Positions 10,701-63,772 of a stretch of DNA of 64,000 bases are shown one piece after another. The notes beneath the pieces were generated by a model, which did not search any database, was not told where the DNA came from, and saw only the letters and a list, made by a program, of their open reading frames with translations. The stretch lies in IMG/VR virus record IMGVR_UViG_3300023440_000001, positions 1 through 64,000 of that record; one strand, 5' to 3'. Numbering within the stretch: position 1 is the stretch's first letter; every line of letters begins with the position of its first letter. The position numbers and the translations under genes are program-made. The stretch is from a virus.

Positions 10701-12853
10701 ACTTCCGGACGCAAAATAACCTTGGCTTCTTTGTTGATGGTATACAGTGCTGCATCTACATGCTCGAGGTAGGTACTCAGATCGTTAATTAGACCATTGC
10801 GCTGATAGAAATCGAAGTCGTAGCCATACTTGCGAGCAAAACTGCGTTGCCCGAACAGTCGTCGCATATTGTACGGGCCAATTCGTGTCTTCAGATGTTC
10901 CCAGGCACTGGGAGACGCCGTGTCAGCACCAAACAGATCAAGCTGCTCATAAAGATAACGACGTATCTTCCCAATGATACCCTTTGATCTTTTGATCTCC
11001 GGAGGCGTACCAATATCAAGTAACTGGTCGTATTTCTTGGCAAGGATGGAGTAGAGCTTGCTCTGTCCTTCCAGTGGTATGGCTGTTAGACGATGATCGG
11101 TAATGGGAATATAACGGCCAGCATTGCGATCGAGAACAAACAACTGATGGCCTTTGTGTTTGGGACTGTAGACCAGAACACCCACACCCGGCACATCAGC
11201 CCCCTTATACTCAGATCCCATTCCCTTACTGCCACGGAATCGAAAGAGCGGTCCTTTAAAACGGTATTCTTCATTGGTGATTGCAGAGGTGGGAATGATC
11301 TTATGTCCACTCAGAATGGTTACTTTGGGCTGCTGGTGTTCTAGTAGCTGGAATTGAAACAGGCCAAGTGTATCAAAACGTCTGCCAAAGGAAAGCATTC
11401 GCCGCGTCCAGTAAATAGCCCGTCCCAGAACTTCTCGTGGAGATATACCACTCAGATTGACCAGTTTCTTACGGATTGGATCATAGTATATATTCTCACC
11501 ATACAGAAAGTTCAGATGATCCGTCTTGTTACGACCCAGTATTAGCTGAGTCGCTGATCGGCGTATGTGACGTGCTTCCCTCCCGGCAAACCGACGGTTG
11601 TACTCCCTGGCGGTAGCAAGTAGCTGGTCATATATCTGATCGTATAAGTCTTTATTGACTTCCTTAACGTGTCGTAATCGTGCCGGAACCAGCCCTAACA
11701 ATCTGGGCAGAAAGCCCTGCTGCTTTGGTTTTACGGCAACCCGATAGAGATTCTCTGTCAGTTCACTGCCCAGTTTCTGATGTTGTTGGTCTATACTGCT
11801 CAGTACTTGAAATAAAGGAGCTGACTCGTAACCTTCGGTACCCTGGATGAACTGGCGATGAACGGTACTAATGGGCAGGTTACGGCGAATATCCCTGCGT
11901 GCTGCCCGATAACGATCCCGGAAGAGACGGTAGCGAGCAACCAGGGTTTCAACCGGATTCTTGTTCAGTCGGTATTTGGACAGACGTTGATTATCACGGA
12001 TCAGAAACACACCGTACCCGGACTCCCCGCCGGTCTGACGCCAGGCGTATTTATAGGCACTGCCGACACGATGGAGAAATGCTTCCCCACGATCCATGTA
12101 CATAGCAGCCCTTTGCAGTGCCGTCTGGATGAATTCGCCGGTGGGTGAAGCCTTCAGAGCACCTCTGGTTTTCAACTGAAACAGTTCCCGGGCAGCTGGT
12201 GCAAAGTGTATGGCCAGTCGGCCGGGAATATCAAAGGCCATATAAGAAGGCAGCCACTTGGCAAAACGGATGGCGTGTCCGGGCAGGTTCCACCAGGCCG
12301 GTCGTTCATCTTTCTGCCGTTCGCGTGGATCACGATTGAAGATACCAATTGCCTGTTCACCGATATAGAATAGAGGTGCTTCATAGGCCAAAGACTTACC
12401 ATATTCGGCAAAAGCACTCTTCAACAGGTTAACTCTGTCGGGTTGATCCATGCGCCGGAAATCACGGATCATTGCCAGAGTACGGAACCGGCGATCTTTA
12501 TAGTGGGACATGAACTCCTGCGCCGGTCGGGATGCTTCCTCCCAGCGACGGGCAAGCCGGCTGATGGATCCAACATTGGTTTCCTGAAGTAACTGCCAGA
12601 GACCTTTTTCCGGTGCTTTAACAGATGCCTTGCGTAACGTTTGCAGGGCAACGGACTTGATTTCAGAAGACTCGCGCAGTGTCTTCAGGGCAAAAGACTC
12701 CAACCGGCGTAGACCGGCAGTGGCCAGACCATGATAAGCACCCCAGGCAATAAACGATAGCGCTACGCTACCGACTAGCTTCTTCAGTGTATCATGACCC
12801 TGTCCTTCAACACCACCGTGATACTGCTGGATCAGTTCGTCCCTATCTGCCAT
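4730..12853 (-). CDS. Giant polyvalent virion protein (2707 aa) in the tape-measure position, with hydrophobic segments, an intein, a PD-(D/E)XK (Cas4/RecB-like) nuclease and an HExxH domain
   Basis: Follows the chaperone-like genes; Gly-rich hydrophobic stretches; GTRTH..GYVD..PIEIKT..QLNVY nuclease motifs (~7400-7150); HERSH at 5842-5828. Confidence 0.75.
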   Translation of the reverse strand: MADRDELIQQYHGGVEGQGHDTLKKLVGSVALSFIAWGAYHGLATAGLRRLESFALKTLRESSEIKSVALQTLRKASVKAPEKGLWQLLQETNVGSISRLARRWEEASRPAQEFMSHYKDRRFRTLAMIRDFRRMDQPDRVNLLKSAFAEYGKSLAYEAPLFYIGEQAIGIFNRDPRERQKDERPAWWNLPGHAIRFAKWLPSYMAFDIPGRLAIHFAPAARELFQLKTRGALKASPTGEFIQTALQRAAMYMDRGEAFLHRVGSAYKYAWRQTGGESGYGVFLIRDNQRLSKYRLNKNPVETLVARYRLFRDRYRAARRDIRRNLPISTVHRQFIQGTEGYESAPLFQVLSSIDQQHQKLGSELTENLYRVAVKPKQQGFLPRLLGLVPARLRHVKEVNKDLYDQIYDQLLATAREYNRRFAGREARHIRRSATQLILGRNKTDHLNFLYGENIYYDPIRKKLVNLSGISPREVLGRAIYWTRRMLSFGRRFDTLGLFQFQLLEHQQPKVTILSGHKIIPTSAITNEEYRFKGPLFRFRGSKGMGSEYKGADVPGVGVLVYSPKHKGHQLFVLDRNAGRYIPITDHRLTAIPLEGQSKLYSILAKKYDQLLDIGTPPEIKRSKGIIGKIRRYLYEQLDLFGADTASPSAWEHLKTRIGPYNMRRLFGQRSFARKYGYDFDFYQRNGLINDLSTYLEHVDAALYTINKEAKVILRPEVFKELFKPLQLTKSDPDIKFIEAIQGKHADILANAEDAYEAVKLLFKTLDKGSLKIAEATPEFRSIARAINELQSKELGGLRNELYNPIGEPLADRFRRFLVNYRLTSIASNVPQELTYDVANDRALATRLINAVGNLVGSTATRRDKAFVQMLFTQARFRNITSQDTIRQIAEVEQNYEKLSQLLGVLKQADDAGVLEAFSKEVSWTAKYSPPDNYREQIYGIVQKTYDTDPYLLLHKDKGELFSLAMDYVYDTFGQALDFMGLGFNRARYSHFLPKKVDGKWRGGVAGLMAKRALFFSGVMTAYNALDTFFDVNPMFDGTALDEGLTVAIADQAVNARLLAARIYDIAGITNFAKYMEGLMPKSTSIIPGAAVGFMMGGLPGMLAGAAINRYTQAQLSGGPLSALAILPPVAPFVADLTKSYDELRKIYSGEEEVPYRRGAGWTTGTTPIEGGRIRAWVPNWYVRLKSQYKASPSLYGSKIEEFIFKDLPFLDFSLGDIIAPQYLEKKHYRDRPYVIPSTPFSEVPIVGPLLGVTVGRLYNLLHPFASNKPMHVEEARAVLTADGVSENQRKLWGYGPIYAGAPALGLEGSQQFGQFVSGTMSPYHGEITTPWDTRQLIAEQVYRGFIEPAGLMGFITSAAMWGGNEPYAGEQPVFASADEMDSFRRFYWDENLGDMLLINEGFRRLFPRPRTDYEKVGLIRNEMPSWMPDEFKHSDPYCLTPDSMVEVNGSLVRADAVKPGDLIRTVKGRFYPVKAVAIREVDEEIYVIKIRGLPWEIKVTEEHPFWIDKQWVKARDLTEDMRVTYPLLKISMPDVLHLKKVRGTVNDDVPLTGRIVRLIALLLSSIDRLNSQHFTLSGPCAPEARRLLADLFDVQPSSGIYKVEPLRKLLVRIIEEGLPLNFYGLDLTVFIQFMAVFAHRDETDEYLYFELPTEAITYQAWNILVQHGYVGWIEDRRIYYSRRAARELAMLCGMDINGLPGDPTSWYEYEWNTRFTEYEWLRLEIEYIRRAHYRGPVYGYEVDTDDSFCVPGACTHNTKVPFGELLLPGEGYETARNVRLTFPAGPSQLGYSAYEQALRMIGIRDELTEMEEDILDAGTRTHRIIQEMLTRLNKNTKAETLIYDPYHNIKGYVDILIQSKNTRHGYMPIEIKTIGAQGFKRLHWPKSKHITQLNVYLNILNESKGILLYVNRDDPTQIRTFQVRYDPRLYEETMNRLETARQLAAQYLAQGYGNPAQAYSFLDRAKVLINAAPFSQEFRDTWQILQQQKEAGVLGEAEIRELNKLQRQRRAMMWKWEMYPYRFKFSQILSPDTEYQNFSLNENIKAAAEYTLPERIMGSIWEKFTHLRSPLHSKLFGLYSPEEQYERFVLYGREFKNWAKPYQHWIEPYSRGLRSVDDPIQGAISYGIGGWLFGGPVLASITAPLGVAYGIMHGIYRGITGTRYIPDRFEEMSEMSQYFDRVRFYKAQMMYLATRNPEFLKEMQRTTVGWTISAMSERGMASRSRKQHNPAAQGIGKDQGFGSPWRGIIGVSRKALNFIAKGEINAEAIGTFIPILNATYRDRIVKLLNGEVGQIRLLDKERQALRQWIEEFDDSPMILIANNINAKLSRIKQLIRHERSHQYFHTALMELDPPGFYRKTGMTPALEKRVAGFLKQRGYNTKNDYEFVSEMIAHEFEYNRARLLRSSYEDIRASFKRLFPKLPDEELDKLAGSFTDSVRWGDMAIQFNRIKLNRSEDTMQPLMRRLHTAEAQGLGVDRGFGSPWQGVNHNLALVGGQSNENQDPQDTYGQRMGQAIRALPYWDRPFLFPFLSTPPDEQDNILQMVDAQMRMVLNMAWNRRRDISKKELDLTRYFQDHYLPSMMEPVMNPAVNVDDVQMLTAEQAGFDAHDFGLGWMSQEQRIRNSPFNLQAIDINGPSPEPVATDMDSATIKAIIEGALASFGVQNAIIQIRSIPSTSSNSIHLNIDIQRERTNVTRANTIRLFGE
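7580..8539 (-). mobile_element. Intein (320 aa) in the giant virion protein, with an apparently degenerate endonuclease region
   Basis: DPY|CLTPDSMVEV start, block B VTEEHPF, block F VYGYEV, end CTHN|T (+1 Thr). Confidence 0.9.
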
Positions 12854-43459: not shown

Positions 43460-43490
43460 CAAATATACATAACAGAGGAGGAGATTGCAA

Positions 43491-44060
43491 ATGGTTTTTC
43501 AAATCGATGAGACCAGACAGGCCGTCCTTGACATAGAACAGGAGCTTCAACCCCTTTACGAGAAGTTTGCCCAGAACGAAGAGGAAGAGTCCGACATCCA
43601 GGAGTACGAACAGCAGATCCGGGAGTTCTTCAGCCGCAATGTAGCATTTCTGCGGCAATATCTGGGGTTTGTCACTCGCATGGAAGCGTTCAGCCGAGAT
43701 GAGTTTGCTGAATTACTGGGTGTTTCACCGGCTACGGTTAAATGGTGGGAACTGGCCAAAGGACTTCCCAACTATTCTTCTGTGCGAGCTCTGCTGCGAT
43801 TGACGAATAAGGTATTACAACTGGAACAACCTTTCCATTACGGCGATATCTACTGCCGTAACATTGCTCGTTCGATCATTCAAAAAGTACCCGCTCGCCT
43901 GAATGGCATCAATGCACTCGTTCAAGCGCTGTCGGGTATGCCACAAGAGGAGCGCCGACGGTTTATCACTTCGGCCCTGAATAACATCAGCGAACTAAAA
44001 CGTTTCGTGGAGGAAGAACATGCCAACAGCAACAGAGAAGCACCCAACACTGGTCCTTGA
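43491..44060 (+). CDS. XRE-family HTH regulator
   Basis: SRDEFAELLGVSPATVKWWELAKGLP; ATG at 43491 after AGGAGGAG; paralog of the N-terminus of 44446. Confidence 0.8.
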   Translation: MVFQIDETRQAVLDIEQELQPLYEKFAQNEEEESDIQEYEQQIREFFSRNVAFLRQYLGFVTRMEAFSRDEFAELLGVSPATVKWWELAKGLPNYSSVRALLRLTNKVLQLEQPFHYGDIYCRNIARSIIQKVPARLNGINALVQALSGMPQEERRRFITSALNNISELKRFVEEEHANSNREAPNTGP

Positions 44061-44439
44061 TGTTAAAGGCAAAGTTATTGATTGTGATCCGCAATTTGAA
44101 CACTTCCTGGGCTTTCCCTATATGCGTCTTATAGGGGAGCCGCTGACTGCTATTACACGCTCTATTGAGAACCTATCCGACTTCCTCAGGCAGGTGATAC
44201 AGAGCGGTCCCATCCGTGGCTGGTGGGACATAAAACTGAGTGGAGATCGCCGGATATATGGATTCTATAAGATGGTCTTTGATGCGCAGAAGTACAGATA
44301 TTATGTGTATATCCACGACTTCAAACTTCATATGGATATCAACACCGCTCTATCATCTCTGATTGCCGAGTTTGAAAATGAAGACATCCTGCAACTTCTG
44401 GCACTGGCTGGTCAGCTTATAACCCACAAACAACAATGA
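44020..44439 (+). CDS. Stand-alone PAS-domain protein
   Basis: LVLDVKGKVIDCDPQFEHFLGF..LIGEPL. Confidence 0.6.
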   Translation: MPTATEKHPTLVLDVKGKVIDCDPQFEHFLGFPYMRLIGEPLTAITRSIENLSDFLRQVIQSGPIRGWWDIKLSGDRRIYGFYKMVFDAQKYRYYVYIHDFKLHMDINTALSSLIAEFENEDILQLLALAGQLITHKQQ

Positions 44440-44445
44440 TGTAAT

Positions 44446-45666
44446 ATGACTGATGAGATATTCATACCGGTAAAGGTAGAAGAAAGACTCGCCGAACTGT
44501 ACAACAAAATGGTCAGCGAAGAGGAAACCAGTAGCGACATTGATAAACATGAAGATGACATTAAGATTCTATTCAGCAAGAACCTGCAATTCCTGAGAAT
44601 GTATCTGGGATTCTGGGCGGTCGGGGAACCGTATACCCGGACTGAGTTTGCCAGCATGCTGAACGTATCAGTACCGACACTTAAGAACTGGGAGCTGGGA
44701 TACTCCCTACCGAATCACTACTCCCTGAAGCGTATCATATCGGTCGTCAAGAAGGTTCTAAATGTTGAACTGCGTCCAGAACAGCTCTACTGCAAATCCA
44801 TCTCCCACATCATATCTGCCCTTCAGCTGGGTATGGATGAAGTTTCCTACAAGACCATATCCGAGGGTGTGGAAAAGGTCGGTGCGAATGAAATGTTGAA
44901 CATCATTCTTAACCGTTCCGTCGAGTACCATGACATCTTTCATATCCTGGTAGAACACGCGCCCATCGGCGTCTATATGTTTCAGGATTACCGGCTTATG
45001 TTCGTTAACCCGGCCATGGCAAATGGGCTCGGTTACCAGCCTGAAGAACTTATAGGAAAGTCCATAATGGAGCTTATTCATCCAGATGACACTGCCCTGG
45101 TGAACAGGATGATACAGGAACGGCTCGTCGGGAGAATGGAGTTTGTGGAGTATACCCTGAGATTGCTTTCCAAGGACGGACATATACGTTACTGGCGGGT
45201 AAAGGGATCGGTCACTCTATATAAAGATAAGCCGGCCATCATCGGTACGGCTGTGGACTTTGGACACTTTATAACGTCATCTTCTCTGTTTGAAGGGTGT
45301 ATGAATCGCAATCCACTGAGTTTGCGACCGTTCATTAATGAAGCATCCCAGGCGACGGTTGTCATGCGTTGCGTCGGTACCCGTGCTAACAAATGTGAAG
45401 ACTTTGTGATATCGGTTTTCAATGATAAGGCTGACGCCTTTCTCCGGCAATTCGGAATTGTTCTTCAGCCCGGTATTCGCGTTAGTCAGCTGCTAATCAA
45501 TCATCCGGATGTGGTTCGGGAGTTATGCAATATATACTGTAATGACAAATACCGGGTATACCGTCGATTAAAGCTTAAGGCACCAAATGAGACGATCGTA
45601 AACACACGGTTTCGGGTGATTCGTTTCCCACTAACCGAATATATTGTTGTGCAGTTTGAAATATAG
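44446..45666 (+). CDS. XRE HTH plus PAS (and a second PAS-like domain) regulator
   Basis: HTH TRTEFASMLNVSVPTLKNWELG; PAS FVNPAMANGLGYQPEELIGKSIMELIHPDD..KDG. Confidence 0.85.
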   Translation: MTDEIFIPVKVEERLAELYNKMVSEEETSSDIDKHEDDIKILFSKNLQFLRMYLGFWAVGEPYTRTEFASMLNVSVPTLKNWELGYSLPNHYSLKRIISVVKKVLNVELRPEQLYCKSISHIISALQLGMDEVSYKTISEGVEKVGANEMLNIILNRSVEYHDIFHILVEHAPIGVYMFQDYRLMFVNPAMANGLGYQPEELIGKSIMELIHPDDTALVNRMIQERLVGRMEFVEYTLRLLSKDGHIRYWRVKGSVTLYKDKPAIIGTAVDFGHFITSSSLFEGCMNRNPLSLRPFINEASQATVVMRCVGTRANKCEDFVISVFNDKADAFLRQFGIVLQPGIRVSQLLINHPDVVRELCNIYCNDKYRVYRRLKLKAPNETIVNTRFRVIRFPLTEYIVVQFEI

Positions 45667-45723
45667 TATTGCGTAATTAGGGGCACTTTAGTATATTCTC
45701 CTAAAACCAGGAGGATATACATT

Positions 45724-46590
45724 ATGAAAAAGCGCCCTATAGTTCTGAGTATAAGCAACCAAAAGGGTGGAGTTGGGAAGACCACAACCGTATGCGCACT
45801 GGCGGAGACCTTTGCCCATAAGGGTTTTCGTGTTGGAGTGATCGATACGGATCCCCAATCTAATACTACCAGCATACTGGGTAAACCCCCTTATTCACAG
45901 GCCGAAAACATCATTGCCGTCCTGGATCCGGAGTTTGATCGACCTATCTCTGCCCTGTTTGTAGAGTCTCCGAAGATTAAGAACCTCTATCTCCTACCCT
46001 CTTCCATAAAGGCGGCTGGAATGTGGCCCGGTCTGTATGGACGTCTGAACGAATATATGATTAATATATACAGTTTATTGGCCAGGTACCTTTCGCAAGA
46101 TGCAACAATCAATGAGGACTTTGATGTCATAATAATAGATACACCACCCTCACTGGATCTGCCCATGATTAACGCACTGTCTTCCTCTGACTACGTAATA
46201 ATCCCCGTGCAGTCCGGAGACCCCTTCTCCCTAGACGGGTGGTCCGAGCTTTATCTCACCATTCAGAAGGTAAAGAAGAACACCAACGAGCGACTGGAGA
46301 TCCTGGGTATCCTGATTACCTATCACGATCCCAGATTTAACGTATGCAAATCCAACTACAGCTATATCCATGATCGTTTTCGTAGAGAAGGTATTCGGGT
46401 CTTTAATACCTACATCAGTGCTTCAGTGGAAGTCAAACTGTCTCACGTGACGAGAAAACCCATCACCATCTTTAATAAGAGTCATAAAGTCAGCGAACAG
46501 TACCGCGAGCTGACAGATGAAATCATTCAAATCCTAGGAGGTCAAATTGGCAAGGAAGAAACCAAAGAAGTCGAAGAGGCCAACAGTTGA
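45724..46590 (+). CDS. parA: ParA/Soj partition ATPase
   Basis: NQKGGVGKTT, IDTDPQSN, IIDTPPSL. Confidence 0.93.
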   Translation: MKKRPIVLSISNQKGGVGKTTTVCALAETFAHKGFRVGVIDTDPQSNTTSILGKPPYSQAENIIAVLDPEFDRPISALFVESPKIKNLYLLPSSIKAAGMWPGLYGRLNEYMINIYSLLARYLSQDATINEDFDVIIIDTPPSLDLPMINALSSSDYVIIPVQSGDPFSLDGWSELYLTIQKVKKNTNERLEILGILITYHDPRFNVCKSNYSYIHDRFRREGIRVFNTYISASVEVKLSHVTRKPITIFNKSHKVSEQYRELTDEIIQILGGQIGKEETKEVEEANS

Positions 46591-47443
46591 CGACATCAAT
46601 CAAATGTGGGGTGTTAGTGATGAGATACGCTCCGATGGTGATGTACTGGATGAATTCCCTGGCTTCGTAAAGAATAGTGTACAAAAAGACACGTACCCAC
46701 AGGATACAGGAGACGTACCTGGTACATACGACATACCACGTACGCCAGACGTACCCGATACTACCGACGTATTGCATACAGGAGACGTACCCGATACAAA
46801 AGACGTACTACATACTCCTGATGTATCCAATACACCTGACGTGCCAGGTACATCAGATGTGCCACATACGACTGGTGTGCCGGATACAGATAGTGTACGC
46901 CGACCGTCAGACGTACCCAGAAAGTACGTCAGACGTACCTCCTCACTGGACAAATATCAATGGAGCATCGATGTATATCGTCGCTGCATTCCAGATCAGA
47001 AGTCCAGAATCAAGCGCCTCTTGTTAAGGGGTATAGGTAAGTTCGTACCAAACAAACGATCTATGTTAACCCGTCGGCTATTCTCGACCATGGTTTTCGA
47101 TGAACTGTCTGATTTATTAAAAGGCAACTGGAAGATGAAGCGGGATATACCTTACTACAGGAAGGTGTGGAAAAGCCTACAGCGCGAAGGATATCTATCC
47201 TTAATCGATATGAGATTAGATGGACCACTCCATGAGCGTGGTTCGATATTTAAGGTCAAGTTTCCTTTATGGGTCGATACAAACAAAGACGTGAAGAAAG
47301 TCAGCACCAGACGCCTGATACTGGATTGTATATTGTGTACAGAATACCTAAAAGACGGCGATCTATCGGTCTTGCCTTACTTTGATATGGTTCAAAAAGA
47401 GTTGAAGAAGCGAAAGATAGATACAGAACCATTATGTTCCTAA
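46547..47443 (+). CDS. ParA partner candidate with a hexapeptide repeat tract and basic C-terminal domain
   Basis: Overlaps parA; basic N-terminus; about 13 T-x-D-V-P/L-x repeats. Confidence 0.55.
   Translation: MARKKPKKSKRPTVDDINQMWGVSDEIRSDGDVLDEFPGFVKNSVQKDTYPQDTGDVPGTYDIPRTPDVPDTTDVLHTGDVPDTKDVLHTPDVSNTPDVPGTSDVPHTTGVPDTDSVRRPSDVPRKYVRRTSSLDKYQWSIDVYRRCIPDQKSRIKRLLLRGIGKFVPNKRSMLTRRLFSTMVFDELSDLLKGNWKMKRDIPYYRKVWKSLQREGYLSLIDMRLDGPLHERGSIFKVKFPLWVDTNKDVKKVSTRRLILDCILCTEYLKDGDLSVLPYFDMVQKELKKRKIDTEPLCS
46702..46940 (+). repeat. Degenerate 18-bp tandem repeat (coding)
   Basis: Recurrent gacgtac/gatgtg cores with 18-nt periodicity. Confidence 0.8.
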
Positions 47444-47721
47444 AGGGTCGCTTACTGGTTCTCAAGGGGTCGTTAAGATGTTCCTAAAGGGTCGCTTAAT
47501 TGTACCCAACTGGTCGTCAGCTGACCAACTATTTGCTATTTTGCTTGACTAATTGGTATCCATATTAGATATTAATCGCTCTTTTGTATATAGGCTTATT
47601 GATTATGGCTAAATCATTATCCATATTGGACAAAGTTAAGCGACCCTTTAGGTACGTTCAAACGACCCTTTAGGTACCTGCATGCGATACCCTGGGTACC
47701 ACTAAGCGACCCTTTAGGTAC
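47434..47721. repeat. Iteron-type replication origin: four direct 22-bp-period repeats and four in inverted orientation
   Basis: ATGTTCCTAAAGGGTCGCTTA-like at 47434, 47456, 47478 and 47500; reverse-complement TAAGCGACCCTTTAGGTAC-like at 47637, 47659, 47681 and 47703; AT-rich spacer and flank; adjacent to rep. Confidence 0.8.
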
Positions 47722-47876
47722 GTAGTCAATTGGAAGTATAAGAATCGTAAGTATTATAATAGCATTGGTTATATATATGGACGTTTCTTTTGCACATAGA
47801 ATCGTTATGCTCTAATCAATAAATGAATATATACTACTTAGTTATACTTGATTAATTAGTTAATTGGAATTTCAAT

Positions 47877-49358
47877 ATGAAAGACAACAAACAACTGATC
47901 GCACCGGATATCGTATCCTTTACCCACTATCCATTTGGGTTCTTGAAGACACCCGAGAATCGTCCCCATCATATTATTGATATTCGTGGGCGTATTACCT
48001 ATGATGGAAAGGTAAACGAATATCGCTGGGTTGTTAAGGGAGATAAAGTTGCCGGACTCCCGGTTGGTTCTGAAAATGACCTGGAAGCATTCGTCCATAT
48101 TGAGCAAGCCCGCAGTGCCAGCACCGATAGTTTCGAAGTCAGCAAACAGCACATACTCCACCAACTTGGCTATCCAAATAACGGAAAGTACCATCTCATC
48201 ATTAACAATGCTATTACCAAGTTTCGAAAACTGAACATAACCGCATTCAACTGTCTGATGGATCCTAAACGGGGTAAGTTCTATAAGGCACTGACTTTCC
48301 CATTCTTTGATTCAGTTGGCATTCTGGGCCGTGGAGATGCTGTCAACGAGATCGATATGAGCATTGATGCCGAGCAGGTACTGGAGCAACTGTCTTCCAT
48401 GCGGCACGTTGCCTTTGTCTTTACCCTATCAAAGCCACTTCGAAGGCTGTTGGATTCTTCAAACGCCATCCCGCTGGATTGGGATATCTATGTAAGTCTG
48501 CCCGAGATTAAAAGCCGCATGTTATACCGTACTGTGAATAAGTTGAGTCATTTTAACATTGACTATATTGAACTTCGGGAAATGGGGAAGCTGCTTTCTT
48601 TGGCCTTTTATCGTAACTCTCGTATTCGAGCATCGCTGGAGAAACCCCTGGACGTACTGAAACAGGCTGGTGTCATTCATGACTATCGATTTACCGAAGA
48701 CAATGGTATCCATTTTAAGTTTAACCCCATTCGGACACAGGTTAAATCCAGCGACAGTACCCGTAAGCACCCACTTTATGAATATCTTGTCAACAAAACC
48801 AATGTGAATCCGCGCTCGGCTCGAGACTGCGTGGAGAGCTTATATTGGCGTGAGGAAGACAAAAGATGGGTCATTCGTTTCTATGAATCTCATAAGAAAC
48901 AACGTGGCTGGAATGACGGGATGCTGGTATTACTACTGAAGGGAGACCAGGAAAAGGTAAAGGATGAACTTCTGGAAGCTCGTCAATGGATCGATCAGAT
49001 GAAAGCGCAGACCAAATCAAAGGAAAGTGAACAGGAAGCCCGGGAGTATTCGAACAAACTTGATGAAATGCTGGTCAAAGCAGTTACTGAGCTTACAGAA
49101 GATGAGCTGAAAGCCCTCTACGAGTGGTCTGTTGAGAATCTTGATAACTTCAGTGTCGAACACCTGAGAAAGAATATGGCTGCAGTAAACAGTGTTCGAG
49201 AGTTGCTCGCATCACCCATCTGCAAAGGATACTTCATAAAGGCATTTCAGGAAGTATATCCGGAAAGGTTCAGAGAGATGCAAAACGCAGCCAGGAATGG
49301 CAAACGAAAGGGTAGGGAAGTGGTCAGAAATGCTATACAGCGTTCCTTATTCGAATAA
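47877..49358 (+). CDS. Plasmid-type replication initiator (RepA-like, winged helix)
   Basis: YPF..GLP..D..LGY..GKY..SRMLYR pattern resembling RepA initiators; next to iterons and parA. Confidence 0.7.
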   Translation: MKDNKQLIAPDIVSFTHYPFGFLKTPENRPHHIIDIRGRITYDGKVNEYRWVVKGDKVAGLPVGSENDLEAFVHIEQARSASTDSFEVSKQHILHQLGYPNNGKYHLIINNAITKFRKLNITAFNCLMDPKRGKFYKALTFPFFDSVGILGRGDAVNEIDMSIDAEQVLEQLSSMRHVAFVFTLSKPLRRLLDSSNAIPLDWDIYVSLPEIKSRMLYRTVNKLSHFNIDYIELREMGKLLSLAFYRNSRIRASLEKPLDVLKQAGVIHDYRFTEDNGIHFKFNPIRTQVKSSDSTRKHPLYEYLVNKTNVNPRSARDCVESLYWREEDKRWVIRFYESHKKQRGWNDGMLVLLLKGDQEKVKDELLEARQWIDQMKAQTKSKESEQEAREYSNKLDEMLVKAVTELTEDELKALYEWSVENLDNFSVEHLRKNMAAVNSVRELLASPICKGYFIKAFQEVYPERFREMQNAARNGKRKGREVVRNAIQRSLFE

Positions 49359-52861: not shown

Positions 52862-53719
52862 TTATGGTTTAAGTATGACAAATCGCCCACGATGCTGTTG
52901 ATTGTCTGCTCTTACCTGATAGAAGTAAGTCCCCGCCGGTAGACTACGCATATCCAGTTGCCGAATATGTCGCCCGGGGCCCAGCCTGCCGTATTCCCGG
53001 TGAAGAACTTCCCGACCCAACACATCATAAACTGATAATGCCACGTTGACTGCTTCCGGTATGGATAGCAGCACTGTGCCAATGGAAGTTACCGGATTGG
53101 GGTAGATAGCAATCATAAATCCCTTCGGTGGCGCCGGTGGTGTATTATCAACGACTGTCGGCGCTTCGATATTAAAGCGAACATGAGTGCTGTCCCACAA
53201 ACCCATCGTATCTGTTACAATCATCACAAACCCAGCCGGACCATAGTAATCCCCCGGATCCGGCTCCACATATAACACTCCCACCGAATCATATACCCGC
53301 ACATGATCCAAATCCTTATATAATAACACCAGCTGACCAATCGTATTATCCGGATCATACAGTATTGAATCCAGGACGGCTGAATACACCTGACCAAAGG
53401 GCAGGGTGGTTATGCTCAGCTGAACATCCGGAACACCAGCTGACACCGTATCAGAGGGGTCCGACTCATTGCCGGCACTATCCACAGCCGTCAGATAATA
53501 CACATAGAGATTCCCCGGCTGCACATCTTTATCCACCGCATGTGTATCCGGATGGGCAATCGTCTGATAGTGTGAAAACACCATCTCATTAACCGCCCGA
53601 TACAATCGATAGGAGTGCATATCCGGCTCCTTATTAGGACTCCAGTAGATGTTCAGTGAATCGGTCTGCGCATAGCCCAGAGACAGTCCGATCAGCAGCA
53701 TCATAATCCAGCGCATCAT
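52862..53719 (-). CDS. Secreted FN3-domain protein with a T9SS (Por) C-terminal sorting domain
   Basis: Signal peptide MMRWIMMLLIGLSLGYA (AGGAGG RBS), YYLTAVDSAGNES, C-terminal YPNP..VYDVLGREV..LPAGTYFY. Confidence 0.8.
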   Translation of the reverse strand: MMRWIMMLLIGLSLGYAQTDSLNIYWSPNKEPDMHSYRLYRAVNEMVFSHYQTIAHPDTHAVDKDVQPGNLYVYYLTAVDSAGNESDPSDTVSAGVPDVQLSITTLPFGQVYSAVLDSILYDPDNTIGQLVLLYKDLDHVRVYDSVGVLYVEPDPGDYYGPAGFVMIVTDTMGLWDSTHVRFNIEAPTVVDNTPPAPPKGFMIAIYPNPVTSIGTVLLSIPEAVNVALSVYDVLGREVLHREYGRLGPGRHIRQLDMRSLPAGTYFYQVRADNQQHRGRFVILKP

Positions 53720-54021
53720 GTAACCTCCTGTTTTCTCTAGATATGTCACAGATGCGCCTATATAGGGACCCAAATTCACTTCTCTCATATTTCAGACAAC
53801 GCAATGGCAAACGAATCCCGGCTCCCGAAAACGTGCCCCCCGGGTCTTACCATCGAACTTTGCGAACTACTGAATACAGCTGAAGTAGAGGAGTGGTAAG
53901 GACTTACGCCATCGAACTTGTGGAGCAGGTTCGGTAATACTCCCCTGGTATTAACTCTGTAAGGTATTCACACCAACCCACTGGTACTGATATCCCCGGG
54001 TATTGACTCTGTATCCTATTC

Positions 54022-58067: not shown

Positions 58068-58147
58068 TAAACTAACCAAGAACATTGAGAAGACCCCGAT
58101 AGCCATTCAGGTTGTCGGAGTTTTCTGTTAGAAAAGAGGTAAAGACA

Positions 58148-59203
58148 ATGTTAGAAGCCCTCAAATCCTGGTGGGTCATCGTCCAGAACACAGGAAAGTG
58201 CTTTGGATGTGCCTACTGTATCATTTCACAACGAAAGGATTTAGGTGGGATGTATGCAGAGGTGGCTATCGGTGACTTGCCATCGAAGTATCTGGGTGAT
58301 CGTGGACGTGACATCCCCGTGGTTATTGATAACTACTTCGGGGATCCGTCCACACAACAGGATCACCTGAGACAGGCCCTGATGGCCTTAAAAGAAGACG
58401 GCCATCGTGGACCTATTGGCATCATCACAAAAGGGAAGTTCGGCCGACAGACGATTGATCTGTTGGCCAGCATTCCCAATGTGGTGGTGCTGCAGTCCAT
58501 ATCGGGACTGCCTAGAAGCATAGAACCCGCAAAACTGGAGACGCGTGTCGAGAATATGCGTCGTCTGGTGGAGGCAGGGATTAAGACTATCGCTTACCTG
58601 CGACCAATTATCGCAGGGTATAATGATAGCCCAGAATCCCTGCAACGGGTTCTGAATCTAATTAAGCTCACCGGAGTCGATACCGTTGTGTACTCCGGCT
58701 TCCGGATAACAGAAGAGACCCGGAAACTGATGGAAGCCAACGGTATTGACATGTCTGGTTTCAAGGAAGATCCGGAACACAAACAGATGCCGGAAGAGGC
58801 TCGTGAATTCATCGAGACTTACGGACACTCAATCGGATTGAAGGTGTTCCGGAAGACTTCCTGCGGGGTTAGCTATCTGTTGGGCACGTCAGACTATAAT
58901 GCCCACTGGAGTAATCCCACAAAGTACGAGTGCCAGAACTGCCCAAATCTCGGCAAATGTTTGCCGAAGTTAAAGTCAGTGGCAGTCCGGGAATCCGTAT
59001 GCAAACCCAAATGTCCACACCAATGTTCCAGTTGCCCATTCTTGAAGGACAACCAGGTACATCTGACTGGTAAATGGACCCTGGGTGAGTTATCAGTAGC
59101 CCGGTGGATACTTGGTCAGCAGGTAACGGCTGGGGAGATTATTAACACGCCGGGTATACTGAATGTTGAAAAGCTCCGCAACTTAAAGAAGGAGGTGAAA
59201 TAA
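58148..59203 (+). CDS. Radical SAM protein (SplB-like) with extra C-terminal Cys clusters
   Basis: CFGCAYC, IITKG, SISGL..IEP, LRPIIAGYND; C-terminal CQNCPNLGKC and CPHQCSSC. Confidence 0.75.
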   Translation: MLEALKSWWVIVQNTGKCFGCAYCIISQRKDLGGMYAEVAIGDLPSKYLGDRGRDIPVVIDNYFGDPSTQQDHLRQALMALKEDGHRGPIGIITKGKFGRQTIDLLASIPNVVVLQSISGLPRSIEPAKLETRVENMRRLVEAGIKTIAYLRPIIAGYNDSPESLQRVLNLIKLTGVDTVVYSGFRITEETRKLMEANGIDMSGFKEDPEHKQMPEEAREFIETYGHSIGLKVFRKTSCGVSYLLGTSDYNAHWSNPTKYECQNCPNLGKCLPKLKSVAVRESVCKPKCPHQCSSCPFLKDNQVHLTGKWTLGELSVARWILGQQVTAGEIINTPGILNVEKLRNLKKEVK

Positions 59204-60141
59204 TGAAGACCTTCTTTAAGCCCAGTGGAGCTGCATGTCCACAAGGCTGTGCGTATTGCATTGTGGACATGAATCCCAACCGCCGGAAGGAGTATCTGGA
59301 GTCAGTTCTGTACTTCATGAACTCCTTCGTGGCGATAAACATCATGCCTGAACGGAGGGACCAACATCTTGAAGAGATTCGAAACCTCGATTGGTCCCTC
59401 TTTTCGGGTGACTATCTGGGATTCCAGGGTGCATCAGAACCATTAATGTACAAACGTACCCTGTTTGATATCCTGGGCAAGGCCAGGCAATTCGGCTTCA
59501 AGGTAGCGATTTGTTCCAAGCTATCCATCGGCCGAAGATTGGCAAAAGAGCTGGCCGAGTTTCGGGATGTCTTGGACATTGAGATTTCATATGCCAAGCT
59601 CTCGGAACTGGAAAGGTCGGACGCCAAACGCCTGGCATCGATAGGAAATGCCCTGGAAGCTGGTTTCGACGTGCTGACAGTCATTCAGCCGTTTATATAC
59701 GGTTTGACGGATGTCAGACTCGAAGAGCTGATCCGGGAGCTGAAGAGCGTGGGAGCCACCTACGTCTCTGTGAATGGCTTCCGATATTCCAAGGCAATGG
59801 AATGGTGGGCCAGGCAGGTACTTCCACATCACATACTCCAGATGTATAGGGAGAATGAGGGTGTGGAATACCTGCCTGATCGGGGTCAGATAGAAGCCCG
59901 ACTAACAGCGGCCGGGTTCAAGGTAACCAAGATCTCTAAATGGTTACGAAGGAATGAATCCGGACGCTACAAGGACCCTGCCGAGGTGATTTCGAATATG
60001 AAACGTCTGGTTGGATTTAAAAGTCAAATAGACCCTTCTAATCCTGATTGGAGGGTCTGCGATAACGAACATCTTCGCGTAGCAAGCGATAGCAATAGTG
60101 AGATGCTTGCAAAGATGTTCGAAAGGAGAATGAACTTCTAA
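59203..60141 (+). CDS. Radical SAM protein (SplB-like)
   Basis: CPQGCAYC, ASEP, IQPFIYGLTD; coupled to the previous gene. Confidence 0.75.
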   Translation: MKTFFKPSGAACPQGCAYCIVDMNPNRRKEYLESVLYFMNSFVAINIMPERRDQHLEEIRNLDWSLFSGDYLGFQGASEPLMYKRTLFDILGKARQFGFKVAICSKLSIGRRLAKELAEFRDVLDIEISYAKLSELERSDAKRLASIGNALEAGFDVLTVIQPFIYGLTDVRLEELIRELKSVGATYVSVNGFRYSKAMEWWARQVLPHHILQMYRENEGVEYLPDRGQIEARLTAAGFKVTKISKWLRRNESGRYKDPAEVISNMKRLVGFKSQIDPSNPDWRVCDNEHLRVASDSNSEMLAKMFERRMNF

Positions 60142-60163
60142 ACAAAGAAAGGAGGTGATAACT

Positions 60164-60340
60164 ATGCGATACTACTGGCGCTGTCCGAGCTGTGCGCCGG
60201 ATGAGCAACACCCATGTGCTTCTCTCGAAGAAGCTCGTAAAGAACTTGAGAAGCACGAACGGGAAGTCCATAAAGGACGACCTGTGGGTGTGTTTGGTAA
60301 ATACTTTGCTCCTCCCTCCGCTTCGCTCCGCTCAAAGTAA
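60164..60340 (+). CDS. Small Zn-finger-like protein
   Basis: AAGGAGGT RBS; CPSC..HEREVH. Confidence 0.5.
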   Translation: MRYYWRCPSCAPDEQHPCASLEEARKELEKHEREVHKGRPVGVFGKYFAPPSASLRSK

Positions 60341-60371
60341 GTGCACACACGTAGTCTTTTAAGTTAACGCA

Positions 60372-60626
60372 ACTACCATTACGCACGCGGCGGCGCTGTC
60401 GCGCCTAAATCCTGTGGTAGGTTTCGGCCTACCATTCGTGGTTACCCGCACCACGGAGTAGCGTCCGAAGCGGGTAGGGACACTCCAGCCTGGCTGGAAT
60501 CCCTAGGGCTGCGCCGCACAGCCCGACGTGCCTTCTGGGTTAACGGAGGCACCTGGATCAAGCTCTGCTTGGCGGCAAAACCGGAGAAACGGCTGAGACT
60601 CCGGGCCTGGCAGAGCACGCGGTAGT
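60372..60626 (+). ncRNA. Candidate multi-hairpin structured RNA
   Basis: Seven nearly abutting hairpins closed by ACTACC/GGTAGT. Confidence 0.45.
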
Positions 60627-60659
60627 CCTCCCTAACTAACAAAGTTAAGGAGGTATGCT

Positions 60660-60932
60660 ATGAATAGCCGTGAAATCAAGTTCTTCTGGGGCGATAAGCT
60701 CATCGCCCGTATCTATCCGCTCAAAAAGGGCGGAGTTACGGTTGACTTATCGCCCTACGTCAACCGGTGCGGTATGCCGGGCCACCGGGTTGACGGAATG
60801 CACAAACCGGCACACGTCTTGGCCGGGATCGACCGGCTGTTGTCAAAATACAACGGCCATAAGATCCGGGCCAATTGCTCCGTTGCGGTCGCGGAGCAGA
60901 CCCTTCGGAAGTATATCGAAGGAAAGATATAA
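60660..60932 (+). CDS. Hypothetical protein
   Basis: TAAGGAGGT RBS. Confidence 0.65.
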   Translation: MNSREIKFFWGDKLIARIYPLKKGGVTVDLSPYVNRCGMPGHRVDGMHKPAHVLAGIDRLLSKYNGHKIRANCSVAVAEQTLRKYIEGKI

Positions 60933-60941
60933 GACCGCACA

Positions 60942-60989
60942 TGCCCCGCCTCGCTATCAGGCGACACCGGCTCGCGACCGAGCGGGGCG
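60942..60989 (+). repeat. 48-nt structured element, copy 1
   Basis: Homologous to 63693-63740 with compensatory changes. Confidence 0.7.
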
Positions 60990-61193
60990 CTAATGAGGCC
61001 TCCTCTCTGGGGGTCCGGGCAGAGTTTCCTCCTCCTTTTGCTCACCCGGGCTCCCAGTGAGTAGGTTCGCCCATCCGACTTACACCGCTATTCATAGGTG
61101 ACTGCCCCTAGGTTGGGGTCAGTCGGCAATGGGCACTGTGGCACCACGCCGGGCATGTCGCCGAAGTGGTGTCCAGCCATGGAGGAGTATACC

Positions 61194-61520
61194 ATGGCTA
61201 TCTATAATATGGAATTGAGTCAAACTTCAATGTCCGCCCCGAACGGTGGACCTGTATTCTTATTAAAGGTCGGGTTCGGCGACCCGGCAACCAACGCCGA
61301 GATCGTTCCGTTCGTCGCCGAAAACGCTCCCGACGCAAACGGCGCAGTACTGTTAATTAACGGGCCCGCCAGCCTTCCGGTGGCAATGGCGCTGGCTCAC
61401 AAATACGCTCATGTATTCGGGGCCGTGGCGGCCTTCGACCCGAAGTTATCCGGGTACGTAGTCGCCATTAGCCACGATCCCGAGTTACCGGTCGGCAAAG
61501 TGCTGAAGTTCGATATGTAA
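61194..61520 (+). CDS. csx3: Csx3/Crn3-like cyclic oligoadenylate ring nuclease
   Basis: 108 aa (GGAGGAG RBS): LLINGPASLPVAMALAHKYAH..FDPKL..YVVAISH. Confidence 0.75.
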   Translation: MAIYNMELSQTSMSAPNGGPVFLLKVGFGDPATNAEIVPFVAENAPDANGAVLLINGPASLPVAMALAHKYAHVFGAVAAFDPKLSGYVVAISHDPELPVGKVLKFDM

Positions 61521-61644
61521 TATGCCGACCGGCGACCTGGGCATGTCGTTAAACTGCCCCGTCGACCGGGCGACGTAAAATAGGCCTTAGGCCCGGTGCG
61601 GCTCCGCTTCGGCGGAGCGTGGTAACCAAACAACAGAGGTGACC

Positions 61645-62004
61645 ATGATCGATATTAAACGTGCCACATCGGGCGTCTATGCCGCTGGGCGCCTGATGAA
61701 TGACATAACTGCGGCGGCAATTCGCCTTGCGGATGAGCCGGCTGTCCGCGAGGCTATCAAAGCCGGGAAGGAAGTCATCGTTGATGTAGACTTCCGGACC
61801 GGTGAAGTCCGGCTGATAACCAACCCCAGCCGGGTCGGTGAATACCTGGCAAAGGCCGAACGTGTCTTCGAGCCCAGCCAGGTCACCGAAATGCCCTGGC
61901 CGCATTGGTGCCATGCCATGTGCGAAGCCGGGGCACAATGGACGGACTTCATCTACAAAGATGACATTGTAAATGAAGTCCGTGCCTGGCTGGATCAGCT
62001 GTAA
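61645..62004 (+). CDS. Hypothetical protein
   Basis: GAGGTG RBS. Confidence 0.6.
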   Translation: MIDIKRATSGVYAAGRLMNDITAAAIRLADEPAVREAIKAGKEVIVDVDFRTGEVRLITNPSRVGEYLAKAERVFEPSQVTEMPWPHWCHAMCEAGAQWTDFIYKDDIVNEVRAWLDQL

Positions 62005-62014
62005 GCTCGTCACT

Positions 62015-62061
62015 GCCACCGGTCTGGTGACCCGGAACGGGTTCGATTCCCGTTCGGTGGC
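62015..62061 (+). ncRNA. Minimal tRNA-like element without an anticodon arm
   Basis: GCCACCG/CGGTGGC stem, GTC-TGGT-GAC hairpin, ACGGG-TTCGATT-CCCGT T-arm. Confidence 0.5.
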
Positions 62062-62082
62062 CTAAGTGATTAAAGGAGGGAC

Positions 62083-62514
62083 GTGATGAAACGCATTGAA
62101 ATCAATGGAATGTCTCCGACACAGATAATGGAACGCTATGGCGTTCACCGCGGAACGGCTTATCGTGCCGTAAAGCGCGGGTATCTGTGCCTGGATTATC
62201 ATAAACGGCAGATTGTGATCGATCCGGCACGCGCCGAGGAGAACCTCGACCTGATTCAGATGGTCGTGGAGCAAACCCTCTGGCGTAAGTTCGGGTGGAT
62301 CCGCAATAAAGCCGACGCCCGCAGCGAAGCCATTCTCGGCCTGCTGGAGCTGACGGGTCATCCAGACTTTGGCAATAAGAACTGGATGATCACGGTTGTC
62401 CAGAATCGGCTGCGGGATTTCGCCAAGAAAGAACGTAATTACCTGCGCCGAGCCAGCAGCCTCGACGCAATGCCCAATTATGAGGCACTGCTGGTAGTGG
62501 CGCCTGAACTATAA
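62083..62514 (+). CDS. HTH plus sigma70 region-2-like protein
   Basis: N-terminal YGVHRGTAYRA; DARSEAILGLLE..WMITVVQNRLRDFAKKE..SLD. Confidence 0.45.
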   Translation: MMKRIEINGMSPTQIMERYGVHRGTAYRAVKRGYLCLDYHKRQIVIDPARAEENLDLIQMVVEQTLWRKFGWIRNKADARSEAILGLLELTGHPDFGNKNWMITVVQNRLRDFAKKERNYLRRASSLDAMPNYEALLVVAPEL

Positions 62515-63683: not shown

Positions 63684-63692
63684 GCCGATTAA

Positions 63693-63740
63693 TGCCCCAC
63701 TTCGTTATCAGGCGACGCTGGTTCGCGACCAGGTGGGGCA
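63693..63740 (+). repeat. 48-nt structured element, copy 2
   Basis: Homologous to 60942-60989. Confidence 0.7.
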
Positions 63741-63772
63741 CTATCCACTAAAACAATGGAGGTGCAACTAGA

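Follow-up and report, generated by a model that had tools for sequence, protein, structure and literature searches.

Viral ring nucleases are the main known viral route past the cyclic-oligoadenylate (cOA) signalling of type III CRISPR systems, and the first viral ring-nuclease anti-CRISPR to be described was AcrIII-1 (Crn2; DUF1874, PF08960). In this study, we analysed a stretch of 64,000 nt (hereafter the window), which constitutes the first 64 kb of the 136,294-bp linear virus record IMGVR_UViG_3300023440_000001, and describe in it a stand-alone gene of another ring nuclease family, csx3/crn3, whose predicted product we call P0001. We propose, at a probability of roughly 60%, that P0001 is a Mn-dependent ring nuclease for cyclic tetra-adenylate (cA4), which the phage would use as an anti-type III CRISPR factor.

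The closest described proteins are Csx3 (Crn3) from A. fulgidus (AfCsx3, AF1864; PDB entries 3WZG, 3WZH, 3WZI, 6VJG and 6YUD) and Csx3 from M. mazei, which belong to the same Pfam family as P0001. The initial annotation of the window stated that Csx3 degrades cA4, which the available sections of PMC7371418 confirm, and that AcrIII-1 is of a different family, which is likewise correct (DUF1874; available text of bioRxiv 10.1101/778746). AcrIII-1 is a small phage enzyme whose destruction of cA4 shuts off every cA4-dependent type III effector, the same task that is proposed here for P0001, but it has an unrelated fold, is metal-independent and features one dimeric site, whereas Csx3 is Mn-dependent and its site is shared by two dimers. 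Csx16, Csx20, Crn4b and AcrIII-2 (a viral SAVED protein) are further phage-borne modules of cellular origin, which degrade or bind cOA and are presumed to be anti-CRISPRs; they belong to other families, although AcrIII-2 resembles Csx3 in holding cA4 sandwiched in a composite, head-to-tail active site. Csx15 forms head-to-tail multimers on cA4 and is a model for sequestration, but it has a CARF fold and not that of Csx3, and it is absent from phage genomes according to the Csx15 paper. Finally, the bacterial Csx3-AAA/Csx3' type, for example slr7080 from the Synechocystis plasmid pSYSA, represents the clade of P0001, which is 41–60% identical to its cellular members and shares with them the invariant elements NGPASLP, HxxxH, DPK and SH. 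Fusion of Csx3 to an AAA+/kinase-like domain has been described for cyanobacteria and slr7080, and the Csx3–P-loop fusion is called uncharacterised in the literature. These modules occur in type III loci (cyanobacteria and others) or with TrmB/MoxR genes (Patescibacteria).

A survey of 28,114 phage genomes with profiles for Crn1–3, Csx15, Csx16 and Csx20 found AcrIII-1 (36), Csx20 (4) and Csx16 (2), with no Crn3 reported in the available text of PMC12409355. Crn4b was found in 11 phages (Crn4 paper) and a viral SAVED ring nuclease has been described (AcrIII-2 paper). Our literature search found no paper describing a phage Csx3; Csx3 is absent from the text of a bioRxiv paper on orphan viral cas genes, and a figure from its IMG/VR query may have counted csx3.

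The gene and its start signal are located as follows:

61194..61520, + strand: csx3/crn3-like gene P0001, 108 aa, ATG at 61194 and TAA at 61518–61520 (open reading frame and translation)
61181..61187, + strand: Shine-Dalgarno-like GGAGGAG, 6 nt 5' of the P0001 ATG (read off the sequence)

The position of the csx3-like open reading frame (ORF) given by the initial annotation could be confirmed, together with a good ribosome-binding site, and each of the four Csx3-like motifs that it quoted is present in the translation, namely NGPASLPV at residues 56–63, LAH at 67–69, FDPKL at 81–85 and VVAISH at 89–94. A longer GTG-started frame from 61098 is also open, but it is not needed, since the homologues start at a Met-x-x-Tyr-Asn that coincides with the ATG at 61194. 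The gene has a G+C content of 55%, with 65% at third codon positions, compared to 47.5% for the genome, an equally high content being reached by only 4 of the 139 ORFs of at least 300 nt. It lies within a G+C-rich islet (60600–62500, 54–57% compared to 47.5% for the genome), which spans csx3 and its small neighbours and is consistent with a horizontally acquired accessory cassette.

P0001 passes the gathering score of Pfam PF09620 (Cas_csx3) with 30.7 bits compared to 21 (E 2.9e-7), residues 51–105 aligning to profile positions 25–78 of 78. A six-frame search of the whole record gave the same result, and Cas_csx3 was the sole Pfam family matched at E<=10. The cut-off of the NCBIfam equivalog TIGR02579 was missed with 28.9 compared to 55.4 bits, and we therefore file P0001 in the wider Csx3 family and not as an AfCsx3 equivalog. 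In a sequence search of all PDB chains, the five best matches were AfCsx3 (AF_1864), with 6YUD at the top (E 0.0032). An AlphaFold2 model based on a 38-sequence alignment reached a mean predicted local distance difference test (pLDDT) of 95.4 and a predicted template-modelling (TM) score of 0.87. Comparison of this model with the PDB by Foldseek gave 13 matches at E<=1e-3, of which the top ten rows were all AfCsx3, including the cA4 complex 6YUD (TM-score 0.64–0.73 by query and 0.66–0.79 by target; best chains 0.73–0.79 at a root-mean-square deviation of 2.4–2.5 Å). The next row was the CARF part of Cat1 and later rows were at noise level. P0001 is therefore a member of the Csx3 sequence family with the predicted Csx3 fold, a beta-alpha-beta core distinct from canonical CARF, and it is of similar length to AfCsx3 (108 compared to ~104 aa). 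No structural match to P0001 was found in BFVD at E<=1e-3.

A homodimer of P0001 was modelled with a score of 0.89 compared to 0.17 for the best control, with 100% agreement of contacts between runs and partner pLDDT of at least 94. Of proteins solved as pairs, 20 of 30 reached the mark set for this score, compared to 1 of 23 solved as single chains; since AfCsx3 dimers have already been solved, the score may reflect likeness only and not independent proof. The predicted interface includes residues 57–69 and 72, with helix 57–69 lying on the two-fold axis. In this model, the His-bearing helix would place H69 at the dyad, where H57 and H60 are found in AfCsx3.

Relatives of P0001 were collected for comparison of the active site and of gene neighbourhoods. 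A search of 5.8 billion proteins yielded 476 relatives at E<=1e-3 among 493 candidates, the listed ones being 44–65% identical. Eight of 25 pattern matches in IMG/VR encode a Csx3 relative (viral loci L006–L013), seven of them full-length. Cellular loci were restricted to one genome per species and to the best 80 of 142 loci (L014–L093), of which 27 are cyanobacterial, 28 are from Patescibacteria/candidate phyla radiation (CPR) and 25 are others, comprising Poribacteria, Beggiatoaceae, Planctomycetota, Acidobacteriota and metagenome-assembled genomes. Compared with the slr7080 region of pSYSA, P0001 is 34% identical, and all 12 plasmid matches among 72,556 records were cyanobacterial.

Residues were mapped from AfCsx3 to P0001 via a phmmer alignment, in which a six-residue tag offset in the PDB numbering puts the H60A substitution of 6YUD in the right place:

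Positions 44–49: S44 to N56, G45 to G57, R46 to P58, I49 to L61
Histidines: H57 to H69, H60 to A72, H61 to H73, H80 to H94
Aspartate face: D69 to D82, R71 to K84

According to the available sections of PMC7371418, H60A and D69A of AfCsx3 are dead and R71A and H80A strongly reduced; H57, H60, H80 and R71 are called absolutely conserved, and a part in catalysis or binding has been demonstrated or proposed for D69, R71, H80 and H57. The equivalents of D69, H57 and H80 are all present in P0001 (D82, H69 and H94), as are those of G45 and I49. The Asp face is thus kept with Lys in place of Arg, and His is found at two of three aligned columns. P0001 is ~27–31% identical to AfCsx3 and differs from it at His60, which is Ala72 with a His at the following position. 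None of the 38 aligned sequences has a His at position 72, whereas H73, D82, K84 and H94 do not vary among them. Among 88 domain sequences from the loci, D82, K84, H94 and G57 are found in 88 of 88, H69 in 85 and H73 in 84. Judged from these alignments, Ala at position 72 is a clade-wide trait and not a phage-specific loss. We suggest that His73, shifted by one residue, may replace His60 of AfCsx3 as a metal ligand, which is a reasonable assumption because the spacing in HxxxH, like that in HxxH, corresponds to about one turn of a helix.

The genomic setting of P0001 differs from that of AfCsx3, which lies beside a type III-B operon. The record is estimated to be 72% complete and has no end repeats. 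Its - strand block at 1–43 kb encodes homologues of tail sheath, portal, large terminase, head protease and major head protein, identifying it as a large uncultured contractile-tailed phage, whose large terminase is at most 31% identical to that of any deposited phage. The + strand block from ~54 kb starts with small ORFs without assigned function, with csx3 ~7 kb into the block, and continues with a single-stranded DNA-binding protein, a RecA-like protein, PolA, primase, ribonucleotide reductase, ThyX and dUTPase; it also holds an Rnl1/PNKP/RlaP RNA-repair set and a DHH/DHHA1 phosphoesterase. With small ORFs around csx3 and replication and nucleotide-metabolism genes after it, the description of csx3 as lying among small early genes is no more than plausible.

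In six-frame searches, neither the Cas10 palm (PF22335) nor the RAMP family (PF03787) was detected in the 136,294-bp record, whereas the same searches were positive in 7 of 14 and 5 of 14 control genomes, respectively. Pfam and PHROG scans of 61 ORFs of the window and 98 ORFs past it returned no cas family, and no CRISPR array was present in the record, in which no 18-mer recurs at least three times at CRISPR-like spacing. The absence of cas genes and arrays, claimed initially for the window, therefore extends to the whole record. Two PD-(D/E)XK nuclease domains match a PHROG labelled 'CRISPR/Cas system associated'; both are Cas4/RecB-type nuclease folds and not a CRISPR system. A Cas4/RecB-like PD-(D/E)XK nuclease domain is internal to a giant ORF (4730–12853, - strand, 2,707 aa; residues ~1787–1945, phrog_1706 and phrog_2506), which closes the structural block together with a second giant ORF (1–4725, - strand, at least 1,575 aa) that runs off the window edge. 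No known acr gene was found in the window, and neither PF08960 nor SAVED matched anywhere in the 136 kb. A solitary CRISPR repeat in the csx3 leader was also considered and rejected, as comparison of nine repeat units, taken from arrays or repeats of cellular loci, with the phage genome gave chance matches of 8–15 nt only.

For the neighbourhoods of the cellular relatives, 1,511 neighbouring ORFs (greedy ORF calls) were clustered by single linkage, and the 52 clusters occurring in at least three loci were annotated. Type III genes, counted as Cas10, RAMPs, Cmr3, Cmr5, Csm2, Csm4, Cas6, Csx1/APE2256, Card1 and reverse transcriptase–Cas1 fusions, lie within 10 kb of csx3 in 32 of the 80 loci, made up of 17/27 cyanobacterial, 15/25 other and 0/28 Patescibacteria loci. 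Among loci with nearly full flanks, the proportion is 21/46. The value of 32/80 is a lower bound, because rarer neighbour clusters were left unannotated. The typical partner is a P-loop NTPase of ~200 aa beside or fused to Csx3, and 46 of the 80 loci hold a member of at least 180 aa in a joint single-linkage cluster. When a hidden Markov model built from 25 of these partner proteins was run with hmmsearch, nothing matched at E<=1 among the ORFs of the phage or in the eight viral loci, so that the phage gene and all eight viral relatives differ from the cellular modules in lacking this partner.

In two of the viral records, the Csx3 relative co-occurs with a gene of the AcrIII-1 family. In L008, a PF08960 STIV_B116-like gene (52.1 bits, cut-off 26) follows the Csx3 gene after 120 nt and is itself followed by an HD_4 hydrolase; STIV B116 is a member of the DUF1874/AcrIII-1 family (available text of bioRxiv 10.1101/778746). 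In L006, a small SAVED-domain gene lies ~1.1 kb 5' of Csx3, and a PF08960 gene is found elsewhere in the same record. The gene orders are:

L008, 4634–8085: PNK3P phosphatase upstream, 226-aa ORF with N-terminal Csx3 domain, PF08960 gene, HD_4 hydrolase
L006, 3347–6288: radical-SAM gene, small SAVED-domain gene, gene without assigned function, Csx3

Both blocks look like clusters of signal-destroying anti-defence genes. The L006 and L007 records (154–155 kb) have terminases 32–35% identical to that of the P0001 phage, and three other viral records are not related in this way. A tblastn search of P0001 against 50,697 deposited phage records gave no match, and PHROGs has no family for it. In a quick maximum-likelihood tree, which is poorly resolved (88 rows, 104 columns), P0001 groups with L006 and L007 (SH-aLRT 86), and two Nostoc loci that lack cas genes form the sister of this group (SH-aLRT 92). 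Both Nostoc loci are prophage-like, with a cI-type helix-turn-helix (HTH) protein, a Rad52-like annealing protein and DUF5131, and directly 5' of Csx3 they carry a PNK3P phosphatase (L033) or a DHH phosphoesterase (L061). The quick tree suggested two to four changes and thus multiple acquisitions by phages, but a tree constrained to keep all eight viral rows together scored 31.5 log-likelihood units higher than the free search, with an approximately unbiased p-value of 0.885. The constrained tree is not rejected, and we therefore claim neither one nor several acquisitions, nor a direction of transfer.

In the model that we propose, the phage would make the stand-alone Csx3/Crn3-type protein during infection and thereby remove cA4, the second messenger made by type III CRISPR-Cas complexes on detection of phage RNA. 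P0001 would form a homodimer as in A. fulgidus Csx3, and one cA4 would be enclosed by two such dimers, stacked head-to-tail. There, the face of one dimer with Asp82 and Lys84 and the face of the other with His69, His73 and His94 would constitute a shared, probably Mn-dependent active site, which would cut the cA4 ring into linear di-adenylates, and cA4-activated effectors (Csx1, Can2, Card1 and Cam1-type proteins) would stay off. As a speculation, the linear A2 products could be degraded by the phage DHH/DHHA1 protein, which is homologous to the DHH gene abutting Csx3 in L061 (24% identity, E 1e-5). We infer binding and cleavage of cA4, metal dependence, the tetramer, the timing of expression and cA4 signalling in the host. 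That a Csx3 can act in this sense is illustrated by the M. mazei protein, whose expression in E. coli led to a partial loss of type III immunity mediated by cA4 and Csx1 (available sections of PMC7371418). The record itself shows a virus-encoded gene and no cognate CRISPR system (no Cas10, RAMP or array), which is the pattern of an anti-CRISPR.

Several observations weigh against this model. Ala72 occupies the column of the catalytic His60, and Lys84 and Pro58 replace Arg71 and Arg46; the TIGR02579 cut-off was missed. Of the 80 cellular loci, 48, with all 28 Patescibacteria among them, have no cas gene within 10 kb, so that the clade may also work outside CRISPR. Without the usual P-loop partner, activity of the solo protein is putative. 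The Csx3 proteins assayed in the literature are archaeal only (A. fulgidus and M. mazei), and deletion of the cyanobacterial slr7080 left interference unaffected. The record is incomplete (estimated at 72%). No sigma-70-like promoter was found within 60,000–62,200, and csx3 is therefore probably co-transcribed with its neighbour genes. The initial reading of a host ring nuclease co-opted as an anti-CRISPR is consequently upheld in part: family and fold, the lack of type III genes on the phage, the CRISPR-linked clade and the AcrIII-1-family neighbour in L008 support the anti-CRISPR role, whereas the exchange of His60 for Ala and the failed equivalog cut-off speak against it, and the origin from a host is left aside by a tree that cannot resolve the direction of transfer.

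The alternative that survives best, and which we nevertheless consider unlikely, is that P0001 acts on a different nucleotide signal or in a non-CRISPR conflict system, for example on a CBASS-like cyclic oligoadenylate or in a Csx3/P-loop pathway. It draws on the Patescibacteria/CPR loci (for example L016, L020, L029, L044 and L084), in which Csx3 often occurs with the P-loop partner and in which a TrmB-type HTH protein (18 loci overall), sometimes with MoxR/VWA genes, takes the place of cas genes, a pattern that suggests a role outside CRISPR for Csx3 in this group, and on the replacement in P0001 of R46 and R71, which contact cA4 in AfCsx3. Yet 32 of the 80 cellular copies of this same clade lie within type III loci, viral copies are found together with genes of the AcrIII-1 family, which is cA4-specific, and AfCsx3 is cA4-specific as well (available sections of PMC7371418).

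Similarly improbable is a role as a cA4 sponge, in which the protein would bind and polymerise around cA4 without turnover and silence the signal by sequestration. The catalytically dead H60A variant of AfCsx3, which carries the Ala found at this position in P0001, still crystallised as cA4-sandwiching filaments (available sections of PMC7371418), and Csx15 is published as a good cA4 sponge and very slow ring nuclease, although its authors argue that sponging would work poorly against the excess of cOA that type III systems make. P0001, however, keeps H69, H73, H94, D82 and K84, which vary little or not at all in the clade, including the copies in CRISPR loci, and Ala72, being shared across the clade, does not mark a loss in the phage. 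Sequestration is also favoured by copies in which the two putative metal-binding histidines are altered:

L010, L011 and L012, 5869–6303: viral Csx3 copies with Lys for His69 and Ala for His73
L061, 9980–10357: Csx3 copy of the prophage-like Nostoc locus, with Pro at position 73

Both His residues are kept in all 84 other sequences, and neither is lost in the 78 other cellular copies. By their residues, the four altered copies may be natural non-cleaving (sponge) forms. One could extend the ring nuclease model to a phage lineage of solo Crn3-type proteins, split into catalytic members (P0001 and L006–L009) and His-less, cA4-polymerising members (L010–L012), with radical-SAM genes perhaps as a second part of the cassette in three lineages; we regard this extension as tentative and, taken as a whole, doubtful.

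The radical-SAM genes are a divergent pair at 58112–59203 and 59203–60141, 1 kb 5' of csx3, with weak likeness to rSAM mobile pair B, PA0069 and Rv2578c. For each of the two, a homologue lies next to the L010 Csx3 (L010, 7032–8246 and 9068–9949), while in L011 and L012 (6808–7119) a 103-aa match to the first of the two (58112–59203) only is found; the L010–L012 phages are otherwise unrelated to the P0001 phage. The radical-SAM gene of L006 lies at 3347–4198, likewise 5' of Csx3.

The csx3 gene is also surrounded by RNA elements:

61560..61624, + strand: pistol self-cleaving ribozyme (RF02679, 62.5 bits compared to a gathering score of 34.5, E 5.5e-9, full model 1–68)
60941..60992, + strand: 52-nt G+C-rich hairpin element, intergenic, ~200 nt 5' of csx3 (repeat search, blastn and minimum-free-energy folds)
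63692..63743: second copy of the 52-nt hairpin, 81% identical, with one compensatory stem change from G-C to A-U
62015..62062, + strand: tRNA-like minihelix with a 7-bp acceptor stem and a T-arm with GGGUUCGAUUCCC, without anticodon arm

Together with the RNA-repair set of the phage, these elements would fit a Mn-dependent deadenylase or exoribonuclease acting on phage or host RNA, and Mn-dependent deadenylation of RNA was in fact the activity originally ascribed to AfCsx3 (Yan et al. 2015, cited in the available sections of PMC7371418). We regard such RNA processing as very improbable, as AfCsx3 has an apparent dissociation constant below 100 nM for cA4 compared to ~10 uM for RNA, and later literature replaced the deadenylase reading by that of a ring nuclease. 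Just as remote is the idea that P0001 switches off a type III system of the phage itself, encoded in an unseen part of the genome, for although the record is linear without end repeats and 72% complete by a CheckV-type estimate, Cas10 palm and RAMP are found in none of the five Csx3-carrying viral records (this one and four others, one of them 98% complete), no cas ORF or array occurs in the 136 kb, and a phage-borne type III locus, which the initial annotation had raised as a competing explanation, is thereby ruled against.

The pistol ribozyme starts 40 nt past the csx3 stop and ends 15–21 nt before the next ORF. Pistol ribozymes cut at a conserved G-U junction, and alignment to the model would place cleavage near 61619/61620, where it would separate the csx3 message from that of the following gene and set its 3' end. 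Since such ribozymes are known to cluster near phage genes (available text of PMC4604425), the element is ordinary in itself; at gathering score, none was found in the viral loci L006–L013 nor in the record segments L002 and L003 (63–102 kb). Besides its two copies, the 52-nt hairpin does not recur in the 136-kb record, and it matches nothing in Rfam at E<=1; it may serve in RNA processing or as a terminator at the borders of the cassette, with an uncertain tie to the csx3 finding. The minihelix has weak Rfam matches (mascRNA-menRNA, 21 bits, E 0.67), ARAGORN calls no tRNA there, and it may be a processing signal for RNase P/Z. The RNA-repair set, comprising a T4 Rnl1-like ligase, a PNKP kinase-phosphatase and a RlaP nucleotidyltransferase, and the DHH/DHHA1 gene lie beyond the window:

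Record positions 75949–77939, 88468–89679 and 134640–135662: RNA-repair and DHH/DHHA1 genes

The ORF following the ribozyme (61639–62004) gave no lead from Pfam, PHROG, NCBIfam or Atlas, and a protein two genes 3' of csx3 is a weak HTH_23 match (24.5 bits, cut-off 24.6). Elsewhere in the window, 52862–53788 (- strand) encodes an fn3-like region with a type A C-terminal sorting domain of the type IX secretion system (TIGR04183, 46 bits), which hints at a host from the Bacteroidota/FCB (Fibrobacteres–Chlorobi–Bacteroidetes) group; one relative of this protein is labelled Calditrichaeota. The region 43485–49358 holds HTH proteins, a PAS-domain protein (44446–45666), a ParA-like ATPase (45724–46590) and a 21-nt direct repeat (47637/47703), which hints at partition as in plasmids, or at lysogeny or pseudolysogeny.

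If the proposed function holds, a working phage Crn3 would add to the anti-CRISPR repertoire a metal-dependent enzyme whose active site is shared between dimers. For the large bacterial Csx3 clade, whose canonical catalytic His would be shifted by one residue, it would also provide the first enzymology, and it would demonstrate that members of this clade do not need the P-loop partner to act. The His-less viral relatives offer a natural contrast of cleavage and sequestration. Should P0001 prove inactive on cA4, the Patescibacteria and phage copies would instead point to a non-CRISPR role of the family.

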